Below are positions 2,326 through 21,990 of a DNA stretch of 30,187 bases, one piece after another. The position numbers and the translations under genes were made by a program. This DNA is from a virus (Duplodnaviria; Caudoviricetes). The notes beneath the pieces are model-generated. The model was not told the origin of the DNA, did no database searches, and saw only the letters and a list, made by a program, of their open reading frames with translations. Positions within the stretch are counted from its first letter, which is position 1, and every line of letters begins with the position of its first letter. The DNA is taken from IMG/VR virus record IMGVR_UViG_3300046786_000471, positions 1 through 30,187 of that record; one strand, given 5' to 3'.

Positions 2326-2562
2326 TCGGTTAAATACAAAATCTAGTTCACCATTTCCCCTAAAGTTTTATTAACTTTAGAGTACTCCCCATCACAGGGA
2401 TAGTCGTTGAACTTTTTTCCTCAGCACCACCTGTAGGAAACTTAGCTGCTGATTACCCAATCTTCATTTCTTTTACTATACTACAATCATTACTGTTGTA
2501 GGGAGTGTATGAAGCTCTAAGGGTTTTCCAGTCAGTTAGATGAATACAGGCAAATTTTCTTT

Positions 2563-3030
2563 ACCAATTGTTTTAGCTTTCACCTTTCTCCTACCCTCTA
2601 AATCAGTCGCTTCTTCAGCGTGTGTAAGATAGAAAACCATTAAATCATCTCTCATCAGAATAGGAAGCTTTGCAATGTGAGCAAGAGCAGCACCCATCTG
2701 TGTAAACTTATCAAAACCCTTCTCAGTAGCGCGATTGAAGTATTCAAATGCACTCATGTATTGAAAATCATCTATAACAATGTTCTTAATCTCTTTGCGT
2801 TCATTGTTAATAATCTTTAGCACAGCTTCTATATCCTGTGGTTTGGATACACTAGCAAGATTACCCTTCTTAGTAGAAAGATCAAATGTTGGATAGAGCT
2901 TTTTCCAACCTTTAAACGGAAGTGGTTTGTTTGCTACGTTAATAATAAATGTTTCTTGTGGATTCAAACTTTCTATGGATGTGGATTTACCACAACCTGA
3001 TTCTGCAATAATTAATACACTTTGCGCCAT
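2563..3030 (-). CDS. AAA_24/Sak4-like ATPase, exon 1 (156 codons; spliced product 227 aa)
   Basis: Walker A AESGCGKS, Walker B IVIDD and LTH motif. The exon ends at the intron 5' splice site ATT GGT. Confidence 0.9.
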
Positions 3031-4583: not shown

Positions 4584-4871
4584 TCATAAATAATCTTCAT
4601 TGAATTTATGCAGAAGATTCATCTCTTCTTCACTCAATTCTTCGTCTGTAATAGACGGTAATTTCTCATTATCAATTGATTCTGAACTAGTTATCGTTAT
4701 TTCATAAGCTTCATTATTAATGTTTCTACAGTAAAACGATCCTGTAGAAAATTCATGTTGTAATAATCCATTTACTAATTTTTGAAGTTTAGTTAACCCT
4801 TCTCTATTAGCATAAATATGTAACCCGTCTTCAAAGATTTTAGGGGTGTAAACTTGGACAATAGGAGTCAT
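4584..4871 (-). CDS. Hypothetical protein
   Basis: 95-aa acidic ORF within the operon. Confidence 0.65.
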   Translation of the reverse strand: MTPIVQVYTPKIFEDGLHIYANREGLTKLQKLVNGLLQHEFSTGSFYCRNINNEAYEITITSSESIDNEKLPSITDEELSEEEMNLLHKFNEDYL

Positions 4872-19511: not shown

Positions 19512-19742
19512 TCATATTTTAATGTTGTTATCAAAATTGTTTTCAATGTAACTAGTGATTTCTTCTGTATCCTTAGTGTTTTCCATTAACATCTTAATGA
19601 ATTCATGTCTTTCAAGTTCAAGTAACTTGTCTACACCCAGTTTATAAAGTTCTTTCAAACTTGGTGACATTGCTTGATGATCTTCCATTAAAGAATTAAT
19701 TAAATCGGAAGCGAGTCCCACTGGCGTTTTTCTTTTTTGCAT
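19512..19742 (-). CDS. Hypothetical protein
   Basis: 76-aa ORF within the operon. Confidence 0.65.
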   Translation of the reverse strand: MQKRKTPVGLASDLINSLMEDHQAMSPSLKELYKLGVDKLLELERHEFIKMLMENTKDTEEITSYIENNFDNNIKI

Positions 19743-20085: not shown

Positions 20086-20123
20086 AAAAAATAAGAGGAT
20101 GCATATAATAATACACATCCTCT
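20086..20123 (-). terminator. Terminator of the ncRNA cluster
   Basis: AGAGGATG...CATCCTCT stem followed by TATTTTTT, 7 nt after the tmRNA CCA. Confidence 0.7.
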
Positions 20124-20130
20124 CGATTAA

Positions 20131-20569
20131 TGGTGGAGAAGGGGGGATTCAAACCCCCGTCTCCGAAAGTACACAATAGTACAACATCTCACATGCTTAG
20201 TACTAACTACTACTTGTTTACTACCAGTAAAGAGTAGCACAAGGTTCATCTGCACCGTAGTTTGGGGATGTCTGGTTAAAGACAACCTACCACCATCTGG
20301 TTTTCGGAACTACCAGGAAAACCTTGACAGCACTCAGAAGGGAGTGTCCACCTATTTGTCAGTTTCTGTTGCCAGGTATGACTACCCCGTTCCTTATGCA
20401 GCTACTGCTACACGAGAGAAGAGAGAAGCAAGAATAGCTTCACCTTCAGAAACACGCTGAGACTTAGTCTTTGCGTTTATTGATGAATCATTGATTAAAG
20501 AGGAATAGACCCTTACCTCTGCATGTATACTACCATATATCATCCGGATCAAATGTCAATCACTTCCCC
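20131..20569 (-). ncRNA. ssrA: tmRNA (439 nt); tag reading frame 20394-20474
   Basis: Acceptor GGGGAAG/CUUCUCC-ACCA with G3.U70 (Ala identity) and T arm GGGGG-UUUGAAU-CCCCC. AUAAAC precedes the resume codon GCA, and the tag reads AKTKSQRVSEGEAILASLFSRVAVAA*. Confidence 0.93.
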
Positions 20570-20578
20570 AGATTTCAG

Positions 20579-20686
20579 TGGTCAGAACGGGAGTCGAACC
20601 CGTAAGTAGTTTTCGAATTAGGCGTTCATCTCTTTCACATCAAGGTTTGGAGACGGCTTACTTTAGCTACCATATGCTATCTGACC
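20579..20686 (-). ncRNA. tRNA-like RNA 1 (108 nt, no canonical anticodon arm)
   Basis: Acceptor GGTCAGA/TCTGACC, D-like TAGC-ATATGGTA-GCTA and T arm ACGGG-TTCGACT-CCCGT. The insert is closed by AAGTA/TACTT. Confidence 0.75.
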
Positions 20687-20824
20687 ATGTCCACAGCTTC
20701 ACTTTATACGTCTATAAAGGAGAGGCTGTGTAATCCACCATAACTTATACCTTGGGTTATTCGTTTACGTGGAAACAAGACCACAGAAGTGTGCATCAAT
20801 ATGAGAGGCAACGTGGTACTGTTG

Positions 20825-20936
20825 TAGTCAGGACAGGATTCGAACCTGTATTTGTAATAACGACCCTCAAGCATCACTCCTAGTTGTGAGTTATTACCGT
20901 TGCTCCCTCGTGCGTCTACCATTTCGCCACCTGACT
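20825..20936 (-). ncRNA. tRNA-like RNA 2 (112 nt)
   Basis: Acceptor AGTCAGG/CCTGACT, D arm GCGAAATGGTAGACGC and T arm ACAGG-TTCGAAT-CCTGT. The ~60-nt insert contains a GTAATAAC/GTTATTAC stem. Confidence 0.8.
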
Positions 20937-21031
20937 ATGTTTTAACAGCGTCACTACTATATGCTGTTACCTACCATAACCTTCCTTATCGTAAGTAAGT
21001 AGGAGATTTAAAAATCTCTATGGTATGTTTT

Positions 21032-21128
21032 GAGGATGAGAACTCCTCTGTGTTGTAGAGAACTTATACTCTAATTTTTAGTACCCCTCATCTCTTAACG
21101 GTTTGCGTACCGTATCGGGAACAACACA
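21032..21128 (-). ncRNA. Putative pseudoknotted RNA module
   Basis: A TGTGTTGT/ACAACACA stem encloses an ACGGT/ACCGT hairpin. Internal GATGAGGG can pair with downstream TTCTCATC. Confidence 0.5.
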
Positions 21129-21131
21129 TAA

Positions 21132-21262
21132 TAAGAGAAGTTGTGGGTTTTACAGGGTTTCTGATTAGCATGATTTCACCTATACCTACTATAAACCCTT
21201 ATTCAGTATAGTCACCCTTATCAGTGGTGTGCTAATTAACAGCTTCAACCACTTCTCTTAAT
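21132..21262 (-). ncRNA. Unidentified pseudoknot RNA motif, copy A
   Basis: Closing stem TAAGAGAAGT/ACTTCTCTTA and pseudoknot AGGGTTT/AAACCCT; homologous to 21583-21685. Confidence 0.7.
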
Positions 21263-21310
21263 ATTCTCAGCCTGCAACTACTATCTTGCACTACATCGTA
21301 CTGAGAATAG

Positions 21311-21448
21311 CAGTCAGGGGAGGATTTGAACCTCCAAGGGCTGTCATTATAGTGACCACACGCAGTGTGCTTTTTTACCCATAGTGCTATAACCATCTAT
21401 TGCGTCTACCGCGACCGGGAGACACCCCGATCCTTCCGCCACCTGACT
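21311..21448 (-). ncRNA. tRNA-like RNA 3 (138 nt)
   Basis: Acceptor AGTCAGG/CCTGACT, a D loop with an inserted hairpin GATCGGG/CCCGGTC, T arm GGAGG-TTCAAAT-CCTCC and a branched insert. Confidence 0.78.
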
Positions 21449-21506
21449 GTTCAACTATTGTTTAAGGAAGTTGACAACCTTCTGTAATTGAGATATTACA
21501 GAACCG

Positions 21507-21578
21507 AAATCAGGACAGGATTTAAACCTGTATCTCTCACCTACTATGATGAGGCGTTATCAATTACGCTACCTGATT
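21507..21578 (-). ncRNA. tRNA-like RNA 4 (72 nt, cloverleaf with a non-canonical anticodon loop)
   Basis: Acceptor AATCAGG/CCTGATT, D arm GCGT-AATTGATA-ACGC, middle arm CTCAT-CATAGTAG-GTGAG and T arm ACAGG-TTTAAAT-CCTGT. Confidence 0.75.
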
Positions 21579-21582
21579 ATAA

Positions 21583-21685
21583 AAGAGAAGCTGTGGGTCT
21601 TTCAAGTCTACTGGTTTGTGGATACTACTATTAGACTTTGTTCATATGATAACACCACCTAACAGCTTCAACCGCTTCTCTTAAT
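21583..21685 (-). ncRNA. Unidentified pseudoknot RNA motif, copy B
   Basis: Closing stem AAGAGAAGC/GCTTCTCTT and pseudoknot AAGTCTA/TAGACTT; 25/26 nt identical to copy A at the 5' end. Confidence 0.7.
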
Positions 21686-21870
21686 AAGTTTAGGAAAGTA
21701 GAAGATGGGTGAGTGGACATCTACTTTTACAACTAGCGTTACTATCCAATCAGGTCAGACATTTCTGTCTGCAACCCAGTCCTAGTTAACCTATAATCAA
21801 AGACCTGTGTTGTTCACGGTGTTACCCGTCCAGGTATTACGCACTGCTACTTTGATTAATAACTTATTAT

Positions 21871-21878
21871 CAAAATTA
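21871..21878 (-). promoter_or_regulatory. Putative -7 promoter box driving the ncRNA cluster
   Basis: TAATTTTG (TAnnTTTG), 12 nt upstream of the first stem-closed module (21794-21858). Confidence 0.5.
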
Positions 21879-21882
21879 CAAA

Positions 21883-21990
21883 TTATCCTTGAAAATCATC
21901 TTTGTTTTTATCTGCTCTATAAAACAAAATAATAACAGTGATTGTCATGACAGCACACCATACGTATCCAAATGTAGATAAGTTATCCAT
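21883..21990 (-). CDS. Small membrane peptide (35 aa, MDNLSTFGYVWCAVMTITVIILFYRADKNKDDFQG)
   Basis: Manual translation; a single hydrophobic helix followed by a charged tail. Confidence 0.55.
   Translation of the reverse strand: MDNLSTFGYVWCAVMTITVIILFYRADKNKDDFQG

Follow-up and report, generated by a model that had tools for sequence, protein, structure and literature searches.

The sequence analyzed here (the window) is the complete 30,187-nucleotide (30-kb) virus record IMGVR_UViG_3300046786_000471 of IMG/VR, with a GC content of about 33%. Its protein genes include those for DnaB, a Sak4-like annealing protein, a UDG, and a CHAP protein, and among sequencing runs it is best matched by freshwater metagenomes, two of which may be its source. 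Between positions 20130 and 22060 there is no notable protein gene. This region holds a cluster of RNA elements, four of which (E1 to E4) have the acceptor stem, D arm, and T arm of a tRNA built around an insert (Table 1). Read along the minus strand, the cluster runs from the candidate promoter through R2, E4, E3, R1, E2, E1, and a transfer-messenger RNA (tmRNA) to the terminator-like hairpin, and it may be a single transcript. The original prediction had placed four tRNA-like elements here. All are present where it put them, on the minus strand, while the tmRNA and the two copies of the R motif had been overlooked. The acceptor stems are perfect 7-bp Watson-Crick helices, as claimed, and so are the 5-bp T stems as described (a 7/5 configuration throughout); acceptor positions 3 to 6 are identical in the four copies. 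When both a T arm and a perfect 7-bp acceptor were required, scanning retrieved four elements in the window and none in any of 200 shuffled sequences.

Table 1. Features of the RNA cluster and the Sak4-like gene of the window. Coordinates of E1 to E4 include base 73.
Feature	Position	Strand	Description
E1	20579-20686 (108 nt)	-	Anticodon-less tRNA-Leu-type frame, A73 and C74; 60-nt insert at 20605-20664
E2	20825-20936 (112 nt)	-	Nearest to the family consensus; A73, A15:U48, G18G19, A20a
E2 insert	20851-20911 (61 nt)	-	8-bp stem, hairpin, possible pseudoknot
E3	21311-21448 (138 nt)	-	Frame with G73; additional D-loop hairpin at 21413-21433
E3 insert	21337-21401 (65 nt)	-	Predicted kissing loops, 21387-21392 with 21347-21352
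E4	21507-21578 (72 nt)	-	Short frame, U73; compensated A19-U56 elbow pair; z -4.3
R1	21133-21259	-	Separate multi-helix RNA motif with paired ends; z -2.8; homologue in locus L016, 92%
R2	21583-21682	-	Second copy of the R motif, interior differing from R1; 4 nt upstream of E4
tmRNA	20131-20569	-	RF00023, 61.5 bits, E 6.5e-22; begins 10 nt downstream of E1
Terminator-like hairpin	20093-20124	-	Closes the cluster downstream of the tmRNA
Candidate Bacteroidota-type promoter box TAnnTTTG	21871-21878	-	Upstream of the cluster; a second box at 21969-21976
Sak4-like single-strand annealing protein	2536-3030	-	phrog_2872, E 2e-36

These elements cannot decode in the usual way. A 5-bp anticodon stem with a 7-nt loop (pyrimidine 32, U33, and purine 37) following the D arm was found in none of the four. 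The prediction that they lack a 7-nt anticodon loop is right in that no canonical decoding arm exists but needs correction for E3, which has a 7-nt loop at the anticodon position, on a bulged stem and with G32. In E4, the anticodon arm is replaced by a 6-bp stem with a 6-nt loop. Uneven calls came from the annotation tools: ARAGORN, from which undetermined or pseudogene calls had been expected, labels E4 as tRNA-??? and makes no call at E1, E2, or E3, and the Rfam tRNA model scores E4 at 44.3, E2 at 41.4, and E1 at 29.0 bits and misses E3.

The elements belong to a large family. Their 5′ half matches an estimated 1,800 stretches of IMG/VR and their 3′ half an estimated 1,700 (at least 139 being listed from 5 of 64 parts). 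Of the 129 distinct starts in 127 loci retrieved with the 5′ half only, 113 are followed by both a T arm and an acceptor strand that is complementary, and 16 are not. The 292 distinct elements form 240 insert clusters, 206 of them singletons, and each of five large phage genomes carries 2 to 9 copies. GTDB contributes 24 matching stretches on 21 contigs, every one from metagenome-assembled genomes (MAGs); 11 of the contigs are labeled Bacteroidota. Since a strict pattern was matched in just 1 of 401 sampled Bacteroidota genomes, we regard the family as a phage trait. An unannotated member lies at about positions 19550-19656 of PQ571275, the record of the cultured phage BS-TP2, which infects Bacteroides salyersiae; we found no cultured relatives of the window cluster itself, and a match in a Streptococcus phage was discarded, as it looks like an ordinary tRNA. 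Given the GTDB labels of related contigs and the member in BS-TP2, the host of the window phage is probably one of the Bacteroidota.

The homologues sit among phage tRNA clusters, always on the same strand as the neighboring tRNAs (100 of 100 cases), and ARAGORN returned an amino acid or undetermined tRNA call for 50 of 237. Anticodon nucleases read the anticodon arm. The elements had been proposed as decoys for tRNA-targeting toxins or nucleases. Decoys for anticodon nucleases would act through their likeness to tRNAs, and both the place of the elements in tRNA clusters and two members in which the frame bears the normal arm of a Lys(UUU) or an Ile(UAU) tRNA would fit. Yet just 7 of 246 elements have a canonical anticodon arm after the D arm, which makes this role very unlikely. 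The two members in question, with canonical-looking arms on an AGTCAGG frame, are tRNA-Ile(UAU) at positions 378-449 of locus L117 and tRNA-Lys(UUU) at 3991-4060 of L077; they are possibly recombinants, and perhaps mischarged.

Our first two scans fixed the acceptor sequence and were thus circular on its constancy; hence, we searched by the D arm alone. This gave 111 distinct matches: 59 with a canonical arm, 17 without a 3′ half, and 35 complete anticodon-less elements. The AGTCAGG acceptor occurs in 11 of these 35 and other paired acceptors in the remaining 24, so that the acceptor stem is no universal invariant. Moreover, the E2 insert was found on three acceptor stems (including those of L504 and L510), and so was the E3 insert. 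Because of these two observations, we conclude that the acceptor sequence marks a subfamily and is not a recognition site common to all members. This bears on the suggestion that a single protein reads the RRTCAGR acceptor stem and binds all copies. The AGTCAGG subfamily is nearly invariant, and the four window copies agree at positions 3 to 6. However, the invariance can be ascribed to exchange via homologous arms, positions 4 to 7 match host tRNA-Leu, and the same inserts, those of E2 and E3, sit on unrelated acceptors. We give such a protein little credence.

What is constant across the frames is a Leu-type D arm, A15:U48 (261/322), a purine at position 73 (306/322), C74, and the elbow between D and T arms. 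All five parsed elements with U56 have A19, including E4, in which G19-C56 has become A19-U56. Of the 12 rows combining A19 with C56, most reflect wrongly parsed loops and at least one is a real mismatch; no parse was obtained for 72 of the 322 elements. At T-stem pairs 49 to 51, pairing is kept in 83 of 89 double changes, a count raised by scan filters that favor paired stems. The frame is under selection. Its 3′ end resembles that of ordinary tRNAs: C74 is present in 106 of the 113 elements retrieved with the 5′ half and in 181 of 184 canonical tRNAs of the same loci, which encode CCA in only 13 cases and favor U at position -1. Since canonical tRNAs likewise have C74 without CCA, the elements bear a normal maturation signature. 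The lack of an encoded CCA was correctly predicted but, like the conserved C74, is no special feature.

The frame likely descends from a Chitinophagaceae-type tRNA-Leu(CAA), with which it shares the D arm, A15:U48, the GCAGG T stem, acceptor positions 4 to 7, and the A73-C74 end, whereas the anticodon and variable arms have been replaced and there is no decoding loop. Of the two main rival explanations, one is leucine charging and the other a processing role in cis (see below). The RNAs could accept leucine and act off the ribosome, as leucine donors or as sponges for the leucyl-tRNA synthetase (LeuRS) or EF-Tu. Bacterial leucine identity comprises A73, A15:U48, G18G19, and A20a, with the anticodon and variable arms dispensable, and Escherichia coli tRNA-Leu lacking both arms is still charged (PMC9976931); in Aquifex, how the variable arm is oriented matters (PMC2377443). 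A73 is found in 274 of 322 elements and, judged by sequence, the full leucine set in 185 of 322, E2 included. In addition, A49-U65 together with A51-U63 occurs in 102 of 132 elements versus 12 of 183 canonical tRNAs, and such a T stem resembles those of weak EF-Tu binders (PMC7826273). Avoidance of EF-Tu is nevertheless weakened as an idea, because the host tRNA-Leu(CAA) already has A51-U63 and the T stem may just be inherited. E3 carries G73, a LeuRS antideterminant (PMC9976931), E4 carries U73, and the diversity of inserts is left unexplained. Leucine charging is plausible for members with A73, as far as their sequences tell, and is unneeded by the explanation that we prefer, but as the function of the family it is quite unlikely.

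The four inserts of the window are mutually unrelated, as predicted, with no matches among them, and a search for k-mer enrichment gave no motif common to inserts. That every insert is folded holds for E2 and E3, by covariation. In the E2 insert, 4 of 17 pairs have double changes (three sequences), a result reached in 8 of 500 shuffles; in the E3 insert, it is 4 of 22 pairs (10 sequences) and 0 of 500 shuffles, all four changes stemming from one divergent copy, L160. These shuffle tests ignore the relatedness of the sequences. The E1 insert lacks double changes, and folding energy is uninformative as proof of structure, the inserts of E1 to E3 taken alone having a z of about -0.2. Among 172 inserts, helices of at least 6 bp occur in 94 versus 47 ± 6 after shuffling, and crossing helices of at least 5 bp in 46 versus 29 ± 3. 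The TTATAG/CTATAA loop-loop pair proposed for E3 is kept in 10 of 10 homologues, but with one U-A changed to U-G and no double change; the homologues are consistent with a kissing pair and do not prove it. From phage to phage, the loop and linker bases of the inserts of E1, E2, and E3 do not vary. One insert, at positions 144-326 of L429, itself holds tRNA-like D and T arms, as a nested frame.

Could the inserts simply be introns, or the elements decaying pseudo-tRNAs? When a single segment is excised, a normal anticodon arm results for 6 of 148 inserts, versus 5.6 ± 2.1 after shuffling, and for none of E1 to E4. The excision test being at chance level, we rejected introns. A host tRNA-Leu(UAA) in one MAG, of Chitinophagaceae type (L534, from position 1501), is interrupted by an apparent group I intron, recognized by eye, and 16 of 129 5′ halves have no clean 3′ half. 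Against this stand the median insert length of 62 nt and the compensatory changes in both frame and insert, and either explanation is hardly credible. The view of natural tRNA-scaffolded RNAs, with compensated stems and 19-56 pair, is upheld: the elements are real, non-decoding, and under selection.

The inserts change places in the manner of cassettes. In the set of 311 elements whose flanks are complete, both flanks are common to 10 pairs with unrelated inserts and to 5 pairs with the same insert. We base the conclusion on one orthologous locus that holds four unrelated inserts in five contigs; this locus, plus a second one represented by one pair with two inserts, accounts for the 10 pairs. 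Conversely, flanks differ on both sides in 90 of 99 pairs that share an insert. The E1 insert is present in six other viral contigs, always within a frame, and no free-standing source was found, since every extended match to the E1, E2, and E3 inserts lies inside a frame (by exact-word searches only). The D-loop hairpin of E3 is missing from most homologues of the E3 insert and is a separate module. The constant 5′ and 3′ arms, about 25 nt each, are likely the crossover points, and the Sak4-like proteins encoded by both the window phage and BS-TP2 are candidate catalysts of the exchange, by short-homology recombination. Such frequent exchange might also mean that the cassettes are selfish or near-neutral, the tRNA arms being recombination hot spots that spread and the inserts being folded only to avoid harm. 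That one frame sequence dominates freshwater phages (11/35) and that no partner protein was found would agree with this. It would not account for the invariant loop and linker bases of the E1, E2, and E3 inserts, nor for T5 RNA1, a similar RNA kept in 487 phage records, and we judge it improbable.

The second main rival is punctuation in cis. RNase P cleavage and 3′ trimming at the frame would free or stabilize neighboring RNAs, and the insert would be filler or a cis-regulatory fold. E1 adjoins the tmRNA; the R motif lies within about 8 nt directly upstream of a tRNA frame in three of the five copies found; start codons cluster 13 to 24 nt downstream of many elements; and the BS-TP2 copy lies between two genes. 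However, the inserts covary and move intact among unrelated neighborhoods, and a 70-nt frame would be enough for processing. The pure processing signal of the original prediction thus leaves the conservation and covariation of inserts unexplained, and we consider a cis role unlikely.

Several further features surround the frames. R-motif copies, with paired ends and a variable interior, also occur in L010, L016, and L295; the motif has no Rfam match, and in 16 of 18 pattern matches there is no extension beyond the motif. The non-coding stretch 21690-21750 (minus strand), just upstream of an R motif, is conserved with L010 2943-2995 and has relatives in two RNA libraries. The R1-E2 spacer (20940-21065, minus strand), 99% identical over 87 nt to L016 3131-3217, is probably another small RNA; it too has relatives in RNA libraries. 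Upstream of E1, a long hairpin (20690-20740) has one arm complementary (14/15) to the 3′ end of R2. The tmRNA was overlooked by ARAGORN, and its likely tag peptide, in the reading frame that we picked, is unusually long (26 amino acids, ending in AA). A 95-amino-acid open reading frame (ORF) at 4584-4871 (minus strand) has a weak match to tRNA_bind_4 (E 7e-5, below the cutoff). As for TAnnTTTG, which we take to be the Bacteroidota promoter consensus, it is not enriched in the window (32 matches versus 41 expected); it lies 3 to 6 nt upstream of 13 of 305 elements and overall counts 58 versus 26 after shuffling, yet 44 on the opposite strand. Elsewhere in the family, a GGAAAGAC hairpin lies within 70 nt upstream of the frame in 18 of 322 elements (e.g., L516 3975-4005), and some frames in L254, L283, and L346 are immediately followed by a second tRNA-like RNA that is short (67 to 68 nt) and whose D arm is reduced.

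Metatranscriptomes give a hint of expression. Within the 4 of 21 listed runs that were compared, one contains pieces identical to 21100-21253, over R1, and to 21344-21493, over the 5′ part of E3; another RNA library contains a piece identical to 20386-20560. Both libraries also contain relatives of the frame.

Among known RNAs, the closest in design are T4 rnaC (species 1 RNA) and RNA1 and RNA2 of phage T5 (AY543070), the latter two annotated as “tRNA-like stable RNA with unknown functions.” In these RNAs too, acceptor, D, and T arms surround a long insert that is no anticodon arm. The location in a phage tRNA and stable-RNA region is shared as well, given the adjoining tmRNA here and the tRNA clusters around homologues. 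The D arm of T5 RNA1 is of the Leu type and is accompanied by an insert, a T arm, and U48; T5 RNA2 has the GCAGG T stem of the family; and in rnaC the ends are paired, the interior is long, and a T arm is present. T4 RNAC and RNAD are without known role (PMC9697503 and PMC3014915). The likeness is one of architecture only, as no T5 or T4 sequence was matched among the matches listed for the family of Bacteroidota phages. T5 RNA1 is also one insert lineage over 487 records (as seen in two homologues), whereas here hundreds of unrelated inserts are exchanged in place. Scale and cassette exchange are what is new.

Two other systems were considered as the identity of the family and rejected. YrlA Y RNAs also join a tRNA-like D, T, and acceptor module to a protein-binding module and occur in phages, but they are circularly permuted and encoded beside Ro60 (PMC4201824), while in the present family the true ends form the acceptor stem. 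The YrlA model (RF02553) reaches at most 15.6 bits in the window versus a cutoff of 69, and no Ro60 gene is found among its 50 ORFs. Across the five large phage genomes, candidate partners are scarce: RtcB in 0/5, reverse transcriptase in 0/5, and TROVE in 1/5. The TROVE (Ro60-like) match, at G409:C1:122228-122440, is in a complete 197-kb phage with eight frames, about 9 kb from the nearest one. Polycistrons of irregular tRNAs and allo-tRNAs are likewise arrays of non-decoding tRNA-like RNAs, some of them chargeable; they keep anticodon arms, often with 8/4 or 9/3 configurations, and come from Acidobacteria, in contrast to the armless 7/5 frames (PMC5389517 and, on the polycistrons, PMC7609411).

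We propose a family of phage RNA genes in which a tRNA-Leu frame carries an exchangeable insert in place of its anticodon and variable arms, a proposal to which, taken with all its steps, we give about even chances. Host tRNA-processing enzymes would release the products as stable RNAs: RNase P would cleave, the 3′ end would be trimmed, and CCA would be added. The frame would thus serve maturation and stability as RNA and provide homology arms as DNA, through which inserts would be swapped by short-homology recombination of the Sak4 type. Acting in trans, each insert would serve as a small folded ligand, perhaps as a decoy for a host defence protein. We favor protein decoys because an arms race between phage and host is expected to leave numerous conserved folds, with several in one genome and with exchange at fixed sites. 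Engineered tRNA scaffolds use the tRNA frame to stabilize a cargo RNA, and phage antitoxin mimics such as pseudo-ToxI are pseudoknotted small RNAs that block defence. The likeness to ToxI-type RNAs is by analogy only, with no Rfam match to them in the loci scanned.

Several results weigh against this proposal. The anti-defence step is drawn from insert diversity and analogy only, and so is offered as a possibility. Insert folding energy barely beats the controls (mean z -0.71 versus -0.45 and -0.57), 0 of 8 pairs in the E1 insert have a double change (five close homologues), and in the window and 50 of the roughly 300 loci none of the inserts has an Rfam match. Only two independent loci supply the swaps in place. 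No protein family occurs near more than 6 of 105 loci. A start codon lies within 45 nt downstream of 108 of 292 elements, versus 36 of 165 canonical tRNAs, and the BS-TP2 copy is inside a gene run, both of which also fit a role in cis. Finally, the RNA pieces are assembled contigs, silent on ends, strand, and CCA, and could come from DNA.

Neither the family nor its insert exchange is described in the full-text literature searched, a body that mostly excludes subscription papers and excludes supplements such as those of RNA-motif screens. The results show that the T4/T5-type design is widespread, with the insert as the variable, selected part, exchanged as a cassette. They also carry a warning for annotation, since ARAGORN labels some such elements as tRNAs. 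What was an old curiosity can thereby be put to the test, in the cultured carrier BS-TP2 and with hundreds of compact RNA folds from nature. More tentatively, and with the odds against it, Bacteroidota phages may share a recombining library of hundreds of structured RNA cassettes, each presented on a tRNA frame that doubles as maturation signal and crossover arm, and each neutralizing a different host defence or RNA-binding protein. If so, this library would be the RNA counterpart of the hot spots of anti-defence genes.
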